A DNA stretch of 64,000 nt from assembly GCA_964535575.1 (NCBI GenBank), contig CAZHTC010000003.1, positions 112,640-176,639 of the forward strand. The letters are read 5' to 3'. The translations under genes were made by a program, and so were the position numbers. The notes under the pieces were generated by a model. The model saw only the letters and a program-made list of their open reading frames with translations. It was not told the origin of the DNA and did not search any database. This document shows, piece after piece, positions 29,345-36,672 of this stretch. This DNA comes from an uncultured Bifidobacteriaceae bacterium. GTDB taxonomy: Bacteria > Bacteroidota > Bacteroidia > UKL13-3. How positions within the stretch are numbered: the first letter of the stretch is position 1; each line of letters starts with the position of its first letter.

Positions 29345-30415
29345 ATGGAATCGCAGGAAGAATATATTAAGGGTCGGGGGGCACAGTTTAAAAGTGCTAA
29401 TCCGTTTTCGCGACTGAATATAGTTCAGGAATTTTTAGAAGGTATTGATGAATCACAATTTTATAATGAAACAACTACTCAGATAATCTATGATTATCCT
29501 AAAACGATTGTGAACAAAGTTGAGAGCCCTGATGTAGGTATGCGCTGGTCACTTAACCCCTATCAGGGTTGCGAACACGGATGCATTTATTGTTATGCCC
29601 GCAATTCGCATCAGTACTGGGGCTATAGTGCCGGATTGGATTTTGAAAGTAAAATAATAGCCAAACCCGAAGCGCCAGGATTACTCCGGGACTGGTTTAA
29701 TAAAAAAAGCTGGGAGCCCGAAACAATTTCTTTATCGGGTAATACCGATTGTTACCAACCGACTGAACGTAAATTAAAGTTAACCCGACAGCTTCTGGAG
29801 GTGTTTCGGGAGTACAAAAATCCGGTAAGTATTATTACCAAAAATCAATTAATTCTGAGAGATATCGATTTATTGCAGGACCTGTCAAAAGAGAATTTAA
29901 CAGCAGTTGTAATGAGTATTACTTCATTAAATGAAGACCTTCGATTGAAACTGGAGCCAAGAACAGCATCGTATAAAAGCAGGATCAAAGTAATTGAAGA
30001 GTTGGCCCGTCAAAACATTCCCGTGGGAGTAATGGCAGCACCGATAATTCCCGGTTTAAATATTTATGATATACCTAAAGTAATTAAAGCAGCGGCCGAG
30101 GCGGGGGCCACATTTGCAGGATACACGTTTGTGCGTTTAAACGGTAGTGTGGCCGATTTGTTCAAAGACTGGCTTTTTAAAAATTATCCCGACACATATA
30201 ATAAGGTATTGCATCAGATTGCGGGTGCTCATGGAGGTTCGGTCAACGACAGCCAGTTTAAAAGGAGGATGAAGGGAGAAGGGCAGATTGCTGATACCGT
30301 TGCTCAGCTTTTTAAAATAGCCCGCAATAAATATATGCCAGGCCACGGTTTTCCAAATCTGGATACCGGCAAATTTCAGCGACCACACGATAATGGCCAG
30401 ATCCGGCTTTTTTAA
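29345..30415 (+). CDS. Radical SAM protein of the SplB-like / PA0069 / Rv2578c family (COG1533, putative DNA-repair lyase)
   Basis: The cluster motif YQGCEHGCIYCYARNSH is the variant typical of this family. A TIM-barrel-length body follows. Confidence 0.7.
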   Translation: MESQEEYIKGRGAQFKSANPFSRLNIVQEFLEGIDESQFYNETTTQIIYDYPKTIVNKVESPDVGMRWSLNPYQGCEHGCIYCYARNSHQYWGYSAGLDFESKIIAKPEAPGLLRDWFNKKSWEPETISLSGNTDCYQPTERKLKLTRQLLEVFREYKNPVSIITKNQLILRDIDLLQDLSKENLTAVVMSITSLNEDLRLKLEPRTASYKSRIKVIEELARQNIPVGVMAAPIIPGLNIYDIPKVIKAAAEAGATFAGYTFVRLNGSVADLFKDWLFKNYPDTYNKVLHQIAGAHGGSVNDSQFKRRMKGEGQIADTVAQLFKIARNKYMPGHGFPNLDTGKFQRPHDNGQIRLF

Positions 30416-30702
30416 ATTCGACAATTGTTATTTTTTAGATGAATTTTAAATTTATTTTTTAATATAATTATAAATATTTGTTTTACAAGCATTTATTTTT
30501 TTATAAATTTTAATTATTTTAGACAAATAATTTTGTTTTATGAAAAAATGTGTACATTTGTGTCCGAACAAACGAAAAAATGAGTACAAAACTTAACCAA
30601 TTAATTACATCCGTTACGAATTGCCTTGATGAGGTGATCTGGTTACTCATACCCGGACAAAAAATGACTTACCAATTTTATAAACCTTTAAAAATTAATG
30701 TT

Positions 30703-31473
30703 ATGAATGCACTTAAAAAATTATCTCTGGCTGCACTTCTTATGTCGGCACTTCCGTCTTTTGCGCAATTGCAGGACGAAAAAAATGTTACTATCACCAT
30801 GGATCTTCAACCCATTCTTCAGTTAAACATGACAACTGCTGATCAGGTGAATTTTGTATTTGACGATATTGCCAGCTACTATGGTGGGTTGGTTCGTTAC
30901 GGGGCTACCACCCTTAAAGTATCAGCTTCTGTAACCTGGGATTTATATGCCGTGGGAACATCAACAAATGGTACAAGCTGGGACCAACAGGTGAAATATG
31001 GTACAGCGGCTAATCCAAATGCAATTGGAGCACTTCCTTTATCTGCACTTGAATTACACCAAAGAGGGGCTAACAACTATGATGCGAATGCTACCGGGGC
31101 ACAAACCGATTACAGTGCTCAGTTTTCTCCGGCTCAAACAGCTGCCGTGGGTGTAAATTGTATTTATACAAATGCAAATCCATATATCGCACCTACCGCT
31201 GCCGATAAATACATTCAGGGCCATAAAGGAACTGTTGCCGCACAGGATGGAGCACCTGGAGGAAGTTACCTAACAGCTACCACTTCGGCCGGTAGCGGTA
31301 ACATAAGTGATTATATGTTTATCATTGACTATCGTATTTTGCCCGGATTACCAGCAGTATTTCCGAATGCTGGAGATAATGCAGGAACGTCTCAATCCCT
31401 CACTGCGGGGCAGTATGCTCAACCCGGTGTGTATACTATGAATGTTAAATATGTATTACTCGAGGATCAATAG
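30703..31473 (+). CDS. Secreted subunit-like protein A (paralogue of 32512..33153), candidate fibre subunit
   Basis: SPI-type signal ...ALPSFAQ. The mature N-terminus has an alternating hydrophobic strand (VTITMDLQPILQLNM). The C-terminal motif DYMFIIDYRILPGL...GVYTMNVKYVLLEDQ is shared with the second copy. There is no T9SS CTD. Confidence 0.5.
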   Translation: MNALKKLSLAALLMSALPSFAQLQDEKNVTITMDLQPILQLNMTTADQVNFVFDDIASYYGGLVRYGATTLKVSASVTWDLYAVGTSTNGTSWDQQVKYGTAANPNAIGALPLSALELHQRGANNYDANATGAQTDYSAQFSPAQTAAVGVNCIYTNANPYIAPTAADKYIQGHKGTVAAQDGAPGGSYLTATTSAGSGNISDYMFIIDYRILPGLPAVFPNAGDNAGTSQSLTAGQYAQPGVYTMNVKYVLLEDQ

Positions 31474-31605
31474 GTTGATTGTTTTTTCATATGCCCAAAT
31501 TCGTAGTCGGTCCGAAAGGATCGGCTGCGTTTTTTTATCGGGCGGAAAACACAATTCCAATAATAAGAACGAGGACTAAGTTATCAGACCTAAACAAAAG
31601 GGCAG

Positions 31606-32484
31606 ATGAAAAACAACAAACCAAATTTATTTTTATTCCTATTCTTTTTCGGAATAATCGGCACGTTAAAGTCGCAGGTAATTTCAACAAGTGATTTGAA
31701 ATCGGATACAACTACAATTGCCGATGAAGGGGTTGCGGTAACTCCGTCCAGCATCAGATTATTTCTTAGACCTGGCGAAACAATTACTAGGGAAATAAAG
31801 GTTACCAACAAAACAAAAAGGGCCTATTCCTTTAGTGTGGCTTTTAATGATTTTAATATGGGCGAAAATGGAAAACCTCAAAACATGGACAGTGCTTTTC
31901 ATAAGTTCTCTCTGTCGAAGTGGGCCGTTGCATCGCCTATGTTTTTTGAGGTTCAGCCTGGTCAGGTACAAAAAGTTCAACTTACTATCACTATTCCGGC
32001 TGATGAGTCGGGGAAAGTGGCTGCCTGGACAATTATGAGTATTGATCAGGTGGCTAAAAGAGAACAGGTGGTAACAGCAAGCAGTGATGCCAAATCGGTT
32101 GCACTGGGAGTAATTCCTAGTTTTGGCTTTGGGATTTATGTGTATCAAAACCCACCTGATGCCGGTGTACCAAAACTTGAAATTGACAAATTTGAAAAAA
32201 CCACTGATGGGAAAGATAAAGAGAAAAGATTATTGCTCCATGTAAAGTCGGAAGGCAATGCCATAGGTTTTTGTCATTCGTATATTGAACTTACTAATAC
32301 TTCAACAGGGGAGTTAATCAAATTGCCGGTGCGCCACTTTACTATTCTCCCGGGTTTTGAACGGGCCATCTATTTCAGTTTACCTGCACAACTTTCAAAA
32401 GGAAAATATTCTGTCATGGCAGTGATAGATTACGGAAGTAAGGAAGATATAAAGGCAGCCGAACTTGAGTTGCAGGTAGAATAA
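31606..32484 (+). CDS. Periplasmic protein with a PapD/FimC-like pilus-chaperone signature
   Basis: After the signal peptide, VAVTPSSIRLFLRPGETITREIKVTNKTKRAYSFSVAFND aligns by eye with FimC GVALGATRVIYPAGQKQEQLAVTNNDENSTYLIQSWVEN. Shared positions are the invariant Arg, P-G, VTN and the trailing aromatic. Further Ig-like segments follow. Confidence 0.45.
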   Translation: MKNNKPNLFLFLFFFGIIGTLKSQVISTSDLKSDTTTIADEGVAVTPSSIRLFLRPGETITREIKVTNKTKRAYSFSVAFNDFNMGENGKPQNMDSAFHKFSLSKWAVASPMFFEVQPGQVQKVQLTITIPADESGKVAAWTIMSIDQVAKREQVVTASSDAKSVALGVIPSFGFGIYVYQNPPDAGVPKLEIDKFEKTTDGKDKEKRLLLHVKSEGNAIGFCHSYIELTNTSTGELIKLPVRHFTILPGFERAIYFSLPAQLSKGKYSVMAVIDYGSKEDIKAAELELQVE

Positions 32485-32511: not shown

Positions 32512-33153
32512 ATGGAAATACAAAAACAATATTTCGTTCTTTTAGGCACATTGTTGCTATGTGCCGCCACTACACAGGTGAATGCCCAGTGCGGGCCACC
32601 GGCAGCAAGCAATTGTCAGGCAGTTCCTGCCAGCAATATGTTTATTACCGGAAACACTAATCTTGACTTTATTTTCGATTCATTCGGCAAATATAGCAGT
32701 GGTATTACCATAAGCGGGGCCACACAGTTACGCCTCACAGTTTTGCCAAATAATGCTTCCTGTAAATGGAAATTAAGGGTGTATATCGACAACAATCCTT
32801 CAGCCCCTACACCGTTAAATGAATGGGAAACACTTTCAGGCTATGGAGGAACAGGAAATATTCCGCAAATAGATCTAATGGAGGTTAGAATTTATAACGG
32901 ATGCAATACCCCTATCAACAGCGGAATTTATCAAAATTTCACCCCACTAAATGGTTCTTATATCGATATCATAAATGATATAGTGCTTAATCCTGCAGGT
33001 TCTTGTGTTTCCAATGTAAATGGTGCCGGAAGTTATCTCACCAATTACAAGGAGTACAGTTTTACCATCGACTACCGCCTGCAGCCCGGATTGCTTTATA
33101 AGGCTGGGGCTTACCAATTAACACTAAGGTTTTGTCTGGTAGAAGATGTATAG
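32512..33153 (+). CDS. Secreted subunit-like protein B (paralogue of 30703..31473)
   Basis: Signal peptide ...TQVNAQ. Cys pairs are present. The C-terminus YSFTIDYRLQPGLLYKAGAYQLTLRFCLVEDV shares the IDYR-x-x-PGL ... aromatic/hydrophobic ... L-x-ED motif with protein A. Confidence 0.5.
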   Translation: MEIQKQYFVLLGTLLLCAATTQVNAQCGPPAASNCQAVPASNMFITGNTNLDFIFDSFGKYSSGITISGATQLRLTVLPNNASCKWKLRVYIDNNPSAPTPLNEWETLSGYGGTGNIPQIDLMEVRIYNGCNTPINSGIYQNFTPLNGSYIDIINDIVLNPAGSCVSNVNGAGSYLTNYKEYSFTIDYRLQPGLLYKAGAYQLTLRFCLVEDV

Positions 33154-36097
33154 CCGCAAAACGATAGCAGGGATTAAGGTCGAACCAAAAAGAAAAATAT
33201 TCTTTTGTTTCCACCTTTTTTTGTTTCTTCTTGTTTTTACCTATTCAATAAGTTTTGCTCAAAATAACCCAGCGCAGCTTCTTATTTTTCCAAAGCAAAA
33301 GATAATACGCATTGAAGAAATGGCAATAGTAAGCAATGTAGTACTTATAAGAAACAATTCAAACGCGGAGGTAAGGTTTTCGATAGAAGCAACCATGCCC
33401 AAAGGATGGAAGCTGTTAAATACAAAAGCTGTTTATACGGTGAATGGAAACGATTCGCTTTTTGTTCCGGTAAGAATTATTCCGACAGGTCCTCTTAAGG
33501 GAAATACCGAGTATATTATTGACCTTATTGTTTATAATACATCAAAAGTAAGGTTAAACTCGGCCTCTTTCTCACTGCTTATATTGAAGAAAACAAACTG
33601 GACCCTTGGGGTTGAACCATCAAATAAAATTTACTTTCTTAACAATTCAACTAAAACCAATTTTACGGTTCGCTATTCTAACAATGGAGATGACGATGAA
33701 CCGGTGCTTACTACTTTCAAACAAACAGATAAAAAAATTTCCATCACTGATAGTTCGGGTAATGTAATAGAGAATTACAAAGATATTTTTACTTTACGGT
33801 CGAGGCAGGATACACAGGTAACTTTTAATGTTTCGTTTGCCGAAAATACGCATAATATTAAGCGGGTTGATTTGGATAACCATCTCCCAAATTCAACGGA
33901 TGAAGAGCGAAAATTCTTGCTTTTTCTTCAATCGGCTGAGGCAAACAGCAAAGACAATAATAGTACATTCAGAAAGAGCGAGAAAATTGAATTTATTAAA
34001 CTGTCAAACCGCAAAAAAATTAATCCATATGCCTCAGATGCACTGCCGTTGGTAATGGAAAATAATATTTTTAACGTTATGGGAATACAACCGGTAATGT
34101 ACCTTAATCTGCGAGGGAATACATTACTTGAAAATAATTCCAATCTGTTTTATTATGCCCAAACAAGCTACTCCAGTTATTTCACAACTCCCGATTTTGC
34201 CCGAAATATTGCTTATTACGCGGGTTACTTTCATGAAAAGGGAGATATTCAGATAGGAGATATGAGCGGTTCAGGTACAATAGGTTTTCAAAGTTTCGGA
34301 CGCGGGATTAAAGGAAGTTATAATTTTACCAAGCGTCACAATGTTGGTGGTTTTTTGCTAAAGTCTCCCCGGTTGTCTGATCCCAATGGAAGCGTTTCGT
34401 ACGGGGCCAATTATAAGTTTTCATTCAACCGCTCTGATTATGCATCTGCACAGGTAAGCCGATCTGAAAATTTGTTGCATCATACTTCAAGTAATTTTGT
34501 AACTGCCACTACACGGATGAATTTATTCAAAAATCACGGGGTAACGCTTGGAGGAGGAATAAGTTCAAGAAACCATCCCGTGAGTAATCTGAAAAAGAAC
34601 GGAACATATGTTAACTTTAACTATTCGGGATTGTTTCTGCAAAATCGGCTTTCGGCTGTATTGCGTATAAGTAATTTGTCAAAGTCATTTGGTGAAAGTG
34701 GCTCGGGGCGTTTTTATGTGTATCACCAAACCGGGTTTACTGTTTCAAAAAAATTAATGCTCATGATGCAAAATAATTATACCACCATGACTACAGTCGG
34801 CAATGCCGGGTATAATTACTTTAACAATCAACTGTTTTTTAATATTAAACAGCAAAGAGGTGCAGTAGTGCCAAGCCTTTTATTCAACACTCAAAATACG
34901 TTTGGTTTGAGAAGACACTTTAAAGGAGTGGGTTTTGATTATAATTATTATCATATACTCTCAAATATTAAAGTCTCTACTTCTCTCAGAGCGGGCTACA
35001 ATAAACTGATTGATTATCGTGATGTATCTTCATTTTTTTCAGCTAACGCCAATCTGCTTACACAGTTCAGAACGTTAAGTTTTACCATGCGGTATTTCTA
35101 CGGACCTACCGTGGTGAGAAATGCCGATGATATAAAAAATCTGCGCAGGTATCCGCAAACTTTTTTCACCTCCCTTCAGCATCAGCTAATTTTTAAAAAG
35201 GAATATTTTGTTTTGCAAAACAACCTCAATTATTCTTACTATAATCAGTTTTTCAGCCACACGTTCGGGTATTTTCCCGAACTTTATCTGTTTACACAAA
35301 ATGGTTGGCGTTTCAGAGCGGGGGTTGGTGTTTCAATGAATGTAAGTAATCCGCGAAAAGCGCTCGAAATGCAAAACCCCGGACAAATTCCAGGTAGCAA
35401 TGGCGTGAGCACCAATATTCTTACAACCAACCTGAATGTTCAGTTTGGGGTGCGTAAACAATTTGGAATACCTGTGCCTGCACAATTTACTCATCGCAGG
35501 TTTGTTACCATTAATTATTTATGCTTTATGGATTTAAACGGAAACAGGATTAAAGATAAAGCCGAACCCGAGCTTGAAAACATTGTTATAAGAACCGGGG
35601 ATGAAGAACTGATGACAGATTTAAACGGGCAGGCCGAACTCATTAATCTGGAGGCGGGGCGCTACAAAGTGAGTCTGATAAATCTTAGTGAATCTAAAAC
35701 ATGGTTTCCGGTTATTGGGGATAGTGTATTAATGGATCGGTCTAAAACCATAATGGTTCCTTTTGTTAAAGGATCAAAAATTACCGGACAAATATACCTG
35801 CAGCGCGAAAGATATGCGGTAGATGAGGAAATAAGTCTCGACTTATCGCGTATAGTGGTTACTGCCGAGGATTCGATGGGGAATAAATACCGAACCATTA
35901 CACGAATGGATGGTACTTTTGAGTTGTTTGTACCAAATGCCCGCTATATCCTTAATTTAGATGCCGGAGTTTGGGGCGATCAGTTTACGGTTGTCAACAA
36001 TAACATGATTGTTGAGCTCAATCTTAAAACGGAAAATACGTTTGTTTCTTTTCAGGTAGTGGAGCGGCAGAGAAAACTACAGATAAAAAAATTCTGA
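33146..36097 (+). CDS. Large outer-membrane protein, candidate usher-like assembly platform
   Basis: 983 aa. A signal peptide is followed by an Ig-like N-terminal region and a roughly 500-aa N/S/Y/F/G-rich region with alternating beta-strand pattern. Two Cna-B/CarboxypepD_reg-like C-terminal domains follow (DLNGNRIKDKAEPELENIVIRTGDEE...). The terminal Phe is typical of an outer-membrane barrel. The start overlaps the stop of subunit B. Confidence 0.4.
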   Translation: MYSRKTIAGIKVEPKRKIFFCFHLFLFLLVFTYSISFAQNNPAQLLIFPKQKIIRIEEMAIVSNVVLIRNNSNAEVRFSIEATMPKGWKLLNTKAVYTVNGNDSLFVPVRIIPTGPLKGNTEYIIDLIVYNTSKVRLNSASFSLLILKKTNWTLGVEPSNKIYFLNNSTKTNFTVRYSNNGDDDEPVLTTFKQTDKKISITDSSGNVIENYKDIFTLRSRQDTQVTFNVSFAENTHNIKRVDLDNHLPNSTDEERKFLLFLQSAEANSKDNNSTFRKSEKIEFIKLSNRKKINPYASDALPLVMENNIFNVMGIQPVMYLNLRGNTLLENNSNLFYYAQTSYSSYFTTPDFARNIAYYAGYFHEKGDIQIGDMSGSGTIGFQSFGRGIKGSYNFTKRHNVGGFLLKSPRLSDPNGSVSYGANYKFSFNRSDYASAQVSRSENLLHHTSSNFVTATTRMNLFKNHGVTLGGGISSRNHPVSNLKKNGTYVNFNYSGLFLQNRLSAVLRISNLSKSFGESGSGRFYVYHQTGFTVSKKLMLMMQNNYTTMTTVGNAGYNYFNNQLFFNIKQQRGAVVPSLLFNTQNTFGLRRHFKGVGFDYNYYHILSNIKVSTSLRAGYNKLIDYRDVSSFFSANANLLTQFRTLSFTMRYFYGPTVVRNADDIKNLRRYPQTFFTSLQHQLIFKKEYFVLQNNLNYSYYNQFFSHTFGYFPELYLFTQNGWRFRAGVGVSMNVSNPRKALEMQNPGQIPGSNGVSTNILTTNLNVQFGVRKQFGIPVPAQFTHRRFVTINYLCFMDLNGNRIKDKAEPELENIVIRTGDEELMTDLNGQAELINLEAGRYKVSLINLSESKTWFPVIGDSVLMDRSKTIMVPFVKGSKITGQIYLQRERYAVDEEISLDLSRIVVTAEDSMGNKYRTITRMDGTFELFVPNARYILNLDAGVWGDQFTVVNNNMIVELNLKTENTFVSFQVVERQRKLQIKKF

Positions 36098-36267: not shown

Positions 36268-36672
36268 ATGAAAGTAGTACCCTTATTTCTCCTGCTTACA
36301 TTCCTTTGCTTTCAGAAGGCGAAGGCCCAATCAACGTGGCAAAACCTTGATACAGTAAAGGCTCCTGCGGTGTACGATCATGTGCATTCGGTAAGGTTGT
36401 ATGGTGATACACTGGTCACCAGTTTTTTACTTTTCATTAAAGATGAGGTCAAAAACCACTTTCATGATGAGCACAGTGAGCATATTTATGTGTTATCAGG
36501 CACTGCACTTATGACACTTGACGGGAAAACATTTCCAATTAAAAAAGGCGATTTCATTTTTGTGCCTATGCAAAAAAGGCATAGTGTGAAAGTAACCTCT
36601 ACCGTTCCACTCAAAGTTATTTCCATACAAGCCCCTTGGTTTGACGGGAAAGACCGGTTGGTTGTGAAGTAA
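36268..36672 (+). CDS. Cupin-domain protein (secreted)
   Basis: Signal peptide. Cupin motifs HFHDEHSEHIYVLSGTA...GDFIFVPMQKRH. Confidence 0.6.
   Translation: MKVVPLFLLLTFLCFQKAKAQSTWQNLDTVKAPAVYDHVHSVRLYGDTLVTSFLLFIKDEVKNHFHDEHSEHIYVLSGTALMTLDGKTFPIKKGDFIFVPMQKRHSVKVTSTVPLKVISIQAPWFDGKDRLVVK

Follow-up and report, generated by a model that had tools for sequence, protein, structure and literature searches.

Fimbrial ushers such as FimD and PapC combine a 24-strand barrel with a plug of ~80 aa between strands 6 and 7 and with periplasmic terminal domains, and classical chaperone-usher systems have, to our knowledge, not been described in Bacteroidota. The Type V (Mfa/FimA) pili of this phylum polymerize by strand exchange from pilins that are lipoproteins matured by a protease, without a PapD-like chaperone or a dedicated barrel. 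Here we examine a locus that resembles the Type V systems in its phylum and in its probable mode of polymerization, and that encodes a 983-aa outer-membrane protein (OMP) together with a candidate PapD-like chaperone and two pilin subunits, A and B. The locus lies on a 64,000-nt stretch (the window) from an uncultured bacterium of the GTDB lineage Bacteroidota; Bacteroidia; UKL13-3, at positions 112,640 to 176,639 of the forward strand of contig CAZHTC010000003.1 (assembly GCA_964535575.1). Our analysis makes it rather likely that the OMP serves as the outer-membrane export and assembly platform, in the role of an usher, of a four-gene pilus system of uncultured Bacteroidota. It is best described, on this analysis, as a divergent, possibly convergent or independently evolved, usher-like platform of a pathway making pili of the TLP-1 type.

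Fibrils TLP-1a and TLP-1b (PDB 9IKJ and 9IKK) were solved by CryoSeek cryo-electron microscopy of filtered pond water (Wang et al., PNAS 2024, PMC11494351). Each is an 8-nm tubule around a 15-Å lumen, and protomer n gains the missing strand of its Ig-like fold from the N-terminus of protomer n+4 (PMC11494351), so that each tubule consists of four separate donor-strand-linked protofilaments running in parallel. According to the authors, neither mass spectrometry nor metagenomics identified the gene, the organism or the function, and their paper solved the filament alone, without discussing a gene cluster or machinery (PMC11494351). In the searchable literature we found no later paper giving the organism or the machinery of TLP-1, and no relevant earlier account of the operon, or of chaperone-usher systems in Bacteroidota, turned up in literature searches. 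The locus described here resembles the archaic and the alternate chaperone-usher systems (Csu of Acinetobacter, CupE, CFA/I, ECP), whose operons are likewise small and encode a pore and a chaperone beside one major subunit and one minor or tip subunit; these systems differ in having recognizable ushers and in building a single chain by n+1 exchange, whereas the TLP-1 type has n+4 exchange and four protofilaments (PMC11494351).

Judged by its sequence, subunit A is a member of the TLP-1 fibril protomer family. The A-family profile matches 9IKK and 9IKJ (E 4e-72 and 2.5e-71) across the whole mature protein, donor strand included, with residues 24-260 aligned to residues 2-236 of the TLP-1 protomer, and the single A sequence matches the protomer at E 7e-45 with ~40% identity to the density-derived sequence. 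In the best related locus (L051), A is 48% identical to the protomer. Conservation within subunit A is highest in the N-terminal strand: the signal peptide is predicted to be cleaved after FAQ, leaving a mature N-terminus, DEKNVTITMDLQPILQLNM, that corresponds to the donor strand, and the strand itself is near-identical between A (NVTITMDLQPILQL) and TLP-1 (NVTVTMDLQPVLQL). The operon thus holds a full-length homolog of the protomer, and differs from the solved structure in the 983-aa OMP, which is absent from the latter. The mechanical open reading frame (ORF) of A, which runs from a GTG at 30550, is too long; an ATG at 30703 precedes the signal peptide MNALKKLSLAALLMSALPSFAQ, and the homologs align from there. 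The AT-rich ~290 nt upstream of A are probably the promoter region.

Subunit B is a paralog of A (hhalign probability 99.8%, E 7e-29), and its profile matches 9IKK at E 4.5e-10. It carries the invariant cysteines C35, C84, C131 and C165 as well as further conserved ones, which A lacks, and the sequences suggest that disulfide stabilization is limited to this minor subunit. In place of the donor strand of A, B has a poorly conserved, Cys-bounded and Pro-containing stretch. Without a conserved N-terminal strand, B can accept a strand and probably cannot donate one, which, we infer, suits a subunit that initiates the fiber or sits at its tip.

The third partner is a candidate chaperone modeled as two Ig-like domains in the PapD arrangement. 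The best two-domain structural matches of the model are CsuC, CfaA and EcpB, and comparison with eight fimbrial chaperones of E. coli K-12 gives an hhalign probability of 77% (E 1.9e-5) over 202 columns that span both domains. A few of its homologs are labeled 'P pilus assembly chaperone PapD' by the Joint Genome Institute (JGI); against PDB sequences, its profile returns weak matches to C2/MSP domains alone. The WxLIPs (DUF916/DUF3324) of Firmicutes, a comparison that bears on the chaperone and not on the OMP, differ in being Gram-positive membrane-anchored wall proteins without an outer-membrane partner.

The OMP itself belongs, by sequence comparison, to a sizeable unannotated family. An exhaustive search matches the family profile to 330 clusters (50% identity) at E < 1e-30, which excludes a chance ORF, and the reading frame given in the initial annotation is confirmed. 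In a scan of one genome per species, OMP relatives are encoded in 105 genome stretches, and a word-indexed search returned 13 relatives. The counts of loci, gene orders and SPOR domains given below rest on the best 80 of these 105 stretches (L001-L080). All 80 are metagenome-assembled genomes (MAGs) of Bacteroidota (Bacteroidia, Flavobacteriales, Chitinophagales, Bacteroidales, Sphingobacteriales and Saprospira-like bins); none is an isolate genome, and records titled Chitinophaga pinensis or Saprospira grandis are also marked as MAGs. The OMP and subunits A and B have no match above threshold in Pfam or NCBIfam, nor was any Pfam similarity found for the subunits, and the OMP has no match among PDB sequences at E <= 10 by phmmer or profile search.

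Within the window, subunit A, chaperone, subunit B and OMP are encoded in this order on one strand (+), and all four proteins carry signal peptides. Conservation of the module was assessed by tblastn and by grouping every ORF of the 80 loci into clusters. Of these loci, 69 hold a gene for subunit A or B along with the OMP gene and 59 the chaperone gene, and the complete set of four was found wherever the contig was long enough. The same survey turned up no other conserved neighbors, such as regulators, glycosyltransferases or proteases: the small recurrent 'families' were antisense shadow ORFs, and the genes flanking the module are unrelated between loci. Chaperone, A, B and OMP are a self-contained four-gene module. 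It occurs in at least four gene orders, of which chaperone-A-B-OMP is the commonest; the order A-chaperone-B-OMP of the window is shared with L001 and L002, OMP-chaperone-A-B is found in L062, L063, L070 and L076, and A-B-OMP-chaperone in L068, L075 and L077. In the window, the start of the OMP gene overlaps the TAG stop of the 213-aa gene for subunit B by 8 nt (ATGTATAG), an arrangement that had been read as implying translational coupling. The overlap is present, but it was seen otherwise only in the closest relatives (L001, L002 and L004), and elsewhere the two genes are mostly separated by 50-400 nt; coupling is therefore not a trait of the family.

The OMP was modeled with AlphaFold2 from a 14-sequence alignment (mean predicted local distance difference test score, pLDDT, 67; predicted template modeling score, pTM, 0.41). 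The model places two beta-sandwich domains after the signal peptide, where the initial annotation had a single Ig-like N-terminus, followed by a very large transmembrane barrel and two further beta-sandwiches (Table 1). The signal peptide has an AQ cleavage context that recurs in A and B. The giant barrel core that had been foreseen is predicted as 26 consecutive strands linked by connections of 2-23 residues; with the longest connection at 23 residues, no plug domain is inserted in the barrel. The expectation of 24 strands plus a plug, for which a strand count on an AlphaFold model had been the suggested check, thus gives way to a barrel that is predicted to be larger and plugless.

The strand count was tested independently by covariation because model confidence is low at aa 288-390. 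Mean-field direct-coupling analysis was applied to 192 family sequences (effective number 168), leaving out the gap state and masking columns rich in gaps. Adjacent hairpins, which served as positive control, have an average coupling score of 1.97. The coupling between strands 1 and 26 scores 2.42, compared with a mean of 1.15 (standard deviation 0.23, maximum 1.86) for the 299 non-adjacent strand pairs, which places it ~5.5 standard deviations above them, and among all residue pairs of the region, 303-772 ranks second in coupling strength. This coupling indicates that the barrel is closed by the first and the last of the 26 predicted strands. An alternative partition, with aa 299-395 as an N-terminal plug within a 20-strand barrel, was rejected, since strands 7 and 26 score 1.17 against 2.42 for strands 1 and 26. 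Within this region, the Gly-rich motif GDIQIG...GTIGFQSFGRGIKG (aa 356-393) belongs to the best-conserved stretches in the family, with G360, Y361, Q369, G371, G380, G385 and G387 invariant and a pLDDT below 50. It falls at strands 4-6, topologically near the position of the usher plug, and is too short for a plug domain; speculatively, it may be a gating or luminal element and not plain barrel wall.

The tandem C-terminal domains had been assigned to the Cna-B/carboxypeptidase-regulatory-like type, an assignment that agrees with the two predicted sandwiches and with the profile matches. The window OMP has a sub-threshold match to the Cna-B-like Pfam family SdrD_B (aa 793-846, E 0.024), its homologs match CarboxypepD_reg, SdrD_B and SpaA prealbumin-like models, one of them above the cut-off, and the two domains resemble one another (hhalign probability 70%). 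In 19 of the 80 orthologs, the C-terminal sandwiches are followed by an extension of 150-550 aa in which a low-complexity linker leads to a SPOR (peptidoglycan-binding) domain (L024, L025, L045, L046, L049, L058, L061 and others; P0061, P0067, P0072 and P0081). Pfam SPOR matches 10 of 14 sequences tested (best E 1.3e-8), and the profile matches the CwlC SPOR structure (PDB 1x60) at E 4e-6. These extensions put the C-terminus of the OMP on the periplasmic side, and an even number of strands would then place the N-terminal domains in the periplasm as well. The window OMP has no SPOR extension; its last residues are a basic tail, ...KKF, that is conserved. At the other end of the protein, orthologs P0089 and P0090 carry an N-terminal extension of 470-610 aa, which follows the signal peptide, precedes the first beta-sandwich domain and consists of Lys/Gln-rich repeats that are coiled-coil-like in appearance.

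In fold ranking, the OMP falls nearest to the ushers. In a Foldseek (3Di) search of the PDB, the eight top matches are all FimD (E 1e-12), followed by PapC (2e-9 to 2e-8), over ~800 columns. The resemblance lies in the order of a periplasmic sandwich N-terminus, a very large barrel and two periplasmic C-terminal sandwiches, and it extends to the gene context, in which the OMP gene stands beside genes for a PapD-like chaperone and donor-strand pilins and a hairpin follows the gene of the major pilin. The differences from ushers are a barrel of 26 strands and not 24, no plug domain in the barrel sequence, two N-terminal domains, and C-terminal domains that score against prealbumin/Cna-B/CarboxypepD_reg models and are joined by SPOR in some members. 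The usher parallel drawn in the initial annotation is therefore upheld in part, by the domain layout, the ranking of FimD and PapC, the gene partners and the periplasmic C-terminus, and fails on strand count, plug, number of N-terminal domains and sequence or profile similarity. With strand count, plug and sequence similarity lacking, the OMP cannot be filed in the usher family, while gene context and domain layout leave an usher-like mode of working standing.

The same comparison bears on whether the OMP is instead a nutrient transporter of the TonB-dependent or SusC-like type, or another barrel for solutes or of the lipopolysaccharide-transport type, that neighbors the pilin genes by chance. 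The TonB-dependent assignment was rejected: neither Plug nor TonB_dep_Rec gives a Pfam match at E <= 1, there is no TonB box, and the barrel has 26 strands, not 22. Furthermore, the prealbumin-like domains are C-terminal and not N-terminal, the OMP gene is linked to chaperone and pilin genes across many lineages and in several gene orders, and TonB-dependent barrels reach only ~1e-6 in Foldseek, which puts ushers six orders of magnitude ahead of them. We regard a transporter that adjoins the pilin genes by coincidence as very improbable, and the usher reading survives the findings that would have displaced it, as the OMP does have a barrel, and this is not of the TonB type, with 22 strands, a plug and a TonB box. 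LptD and MtrB, which also have 26-strand barrels, show no sequence similarity to the OMP and have other flanking domains; their barrels are filled by a partner (LptE and MtrA, respectively), and no such partner gene is conserved beside the OMP.

Several observations weigh against the interpretation of the OMP as an usher-like platform. At E <= 1, Pfam returns none of Usher, PapC_N and PapC_C for the OMP, NCBIfam likewise lacks a match, and the OMP family compared with six ushers of E. coli K-12 (FimD, EcpC, HtrE, SfmD, YehB and ElfC) reaches an hhalign probability of 0.2%, or at most 1.5% when single domains are compared with the same six. The Foldseek TM-scores are low for all matches (0.24-0.37), so that the usher match is one of domain order and type, and not of rigid superposition or barrel geometry. 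The OMP model is of moderate overall confidence, and aa 288-390 fall below a pLDDT of 50. In the chaperone, the positions of the classical Arg8 and Lys112, the pair that anchors the C-terminus of the subunit, fall on Ser49 and Asp147 in a low-confidence hhalign alignment, by which the pair would not be conserved; an invariant Arg253 lies outside the positions aligned to them. As far as can be read from the sequence, nothing accounts for the shutting of a 26-strand pore that has no plug domain. Finally, a four-protofilament TLP-1 tubule is not makeable by any known single usher, which handles one subunit and one chain at a time; the alternatives are cooperation between several pores, a four-chain cap templated by B, and extracellular polymerization.

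Extracellular polymerization is the core of the main competing explanation, in which the OMP is a passive secretion channel that lets A and B through the outer membrane, chaperoned or unfolded, comparable to CsgG of curli or FapF of Fap amyloid, or a surface or wall anchor, and donor-strand polymerization proceeds spontaneously outside the cell without usher-like catalysis. The absence of usher homology and of a plug would suit such a channel, self-assembly at the surface would more readily account for the four protofilaments of TLP-1 (PMC11494351), and the SPOR domains suggest tethering to the wall. Moreover, donor-strand fibers such as TasA (whose paper, PMC9674648, is cited in PMC11494351) and the archaeal cannulae assemble without an usher. 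Against a passive channel stand the four conserved, predicted periplasmic beta-sandwich domains that flank the barrel colinearly with those of ushers, and the dedicated PapD-like chaperone, which is strictly co-inherited and would be needless for the passage of unfolded subunits. The 26-strand pore would also be wide enough for folded Ig-like subunits. Weighing these points, we consider passive secretion or anchoring unlikely, and favor the OMP as an active, usher-like platform.

How such a platform might work can be outlined from the predicted properties of its parts. The four proteins, each with a signal peptide, would be exported by Sec, and the barrel would insert in the outer membrane. 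The periplasmic chaperone, with its two-domain PapD-like fold, would cap the open groove of A and of B, and the chaperone-subunit complexes may dock on the N- and C-terminal sandwich domains on the periplasmic side of the pore. As a subunit that only accepts, B would enter first and become the tip, after which A would be added by donor-strand exchange via NVTITMDLQPILQL, an exchange demonstrated for the homologous TLP-1a/b fibrils (9IKJ/9IKK, PMC11494351). The chain would exit through the plugless 26-strand barrel and pack outside the cell into the 8-nm tubule. A barrel wider than the 24-strand barrel of ushers would suit a pilin of ~235 residues, larger than the classical pilins, and the hairpin that follows gene A would set a high ratio of A to machinery in expression.

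A more far-reaching version of this scheme would see in the OMP the first member of another class of 'usher', the second and of independent evolutionary origin, with a plugless 26-strand barrel and a chaperone-like N-terminal module, that simultaneously builds four donor-strand-linked protofilaments into the hollow 8-nm tubule either as an oligomer, for example of four pores, or with the help of a cap formed by B. We put this forward as a tentative idea that may well prove wrong. A related proposal concerns the N-terminal two-domain module, which could be a PapD-like chaperone fused to the pore and give the OMP chaperone as well as usher functions, a tethered copy that holds one end of a subunit while the free chaperone delivers the next. 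Between aa 45-250 of the OMP and the chaperone there is weak colinear profile similarity over both domains (hhalign probability 15-57%, E 1e-4 to 2e-3); these probabilities lie under any accepted threshold, however, and Ig-like sandwiches of the N-x-S/T...P-x-G-W type are very common, which leaves a tethered chaperone decidedly improbable. In Foldseek, the N-terminal domains have secondary matches to ASH/PapD-like repeat proteins and WxLIP, and they share with the chaperone a set of structural neighbors (ASH/PapD-like repeats, WxLIP and RbmA).

A putative regulatory sequence within the module sets gene A apart. Defined as a hairpin at least as stable as -10 kcal/mol, with a T-run behind it, within 120 nt after the gene, an element of this kind follows gene A in 37 of 62 loci, B in 2 of 64 and the chaperone gene in none of 58. 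This specificity for gene A fits a high expression of A as the major subunit. Where the order is the common chaperone-A-B-OMP, the hairpin lies in mid-operon, a position that suggests attenuation or stabilization of the mRNA as a means of setting subunit stoichiometry.

Two further genes adjoin the module in the window and a few of its relatives. A radical-SAM gene, which L001-L005 and L057 (six loci) also have beside the module, lies upstream, and a gene for a secreted cupin lies downstream and recurs in four (L001-L004). We take both to reflect shared ancestry and to stand outside the pilus system. The coordinates of all features are collected in Table 1.

Table 1. Features of the pilus module and its surroundings, in positions of the 64,000-nt window.
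Feature	Position	Strand	Basis or remark
Radical-SAM gene	29345-30415		upstream of the module
AT-rich putative promoter region of A	30416-30702		upstream of A
Subunit A, major pilin, 256 aa, homolog of the TLP-1a/b protomer	30703-31473	+	profile match to 9IKK/9IKJ
Terminator-like hairpin, 12-bp stem with 7 G-C pairs, followed by a T7 run	31502-31539	+	directly 3' of gene A
Candidate periplasmic two-domain PapD-like chaperone, 292 aa, with signal peptide	31606-32484	+	structure matches; hhalign
Subunit B, minor pilin, 213 aa, paralog of A with conserved cysteines	32512-33153	+	hhalign; 9IKK match
OMP gene, 983 aa, ATG start	33146-36097	+	ORF; family of 330 clusters
OMP signal peptide, aa 1-39, ends SFA/Q	33146-33262	+	sequence reading; AlphaFold2 signal or transmembrane helix at aa 18-38
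Two predicted N-terminal beta-sandwich domains, aa 45-146 and 152-285, probably periplasmic	33278-34000	+	AlphaFold2, DSSP
Predicted 26-strand transmembrane beta-barrel, aa 299-776, without inserted plug	34040-35473	+	AlphaFold2; covariation
Gly-rich motif, aa 356-393	34211-34324		family conservation
Two predicted C-terminal prealbumin/Cna-B/CarboxypepD_reg-like beta-sandwiches, aa 786-886 and 904-973, periplasmic	35501-36064	+	AlphaFold2; Pfam
Secreted cupin gene	36268-36672		downstream of the module

The window and about 70 related loci assign the TLP-1 fibril family to uncultured Bacteroidota, and the module supplies a complete candidate pathway for TLP-1 assembly, with a chaperone, a tip subunit and an outer-membrane pore. 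A solved but orphan environmental fiber is thereby tied to a lineage and to a testable four-gene system. The system is chaperone-usher-like and occurs in a phylum not known for such systems, with a pore that has no detectable usher homology and another barrel size, and its four-protofilament tubule tests the generality of the usher mechanism. If the idea of a second class of 'usher' is true, its assembly logic would be new among known chaperone-usher systems, and would account for abundant environmental fibrils of uncultured freshwater Bacteroidota.

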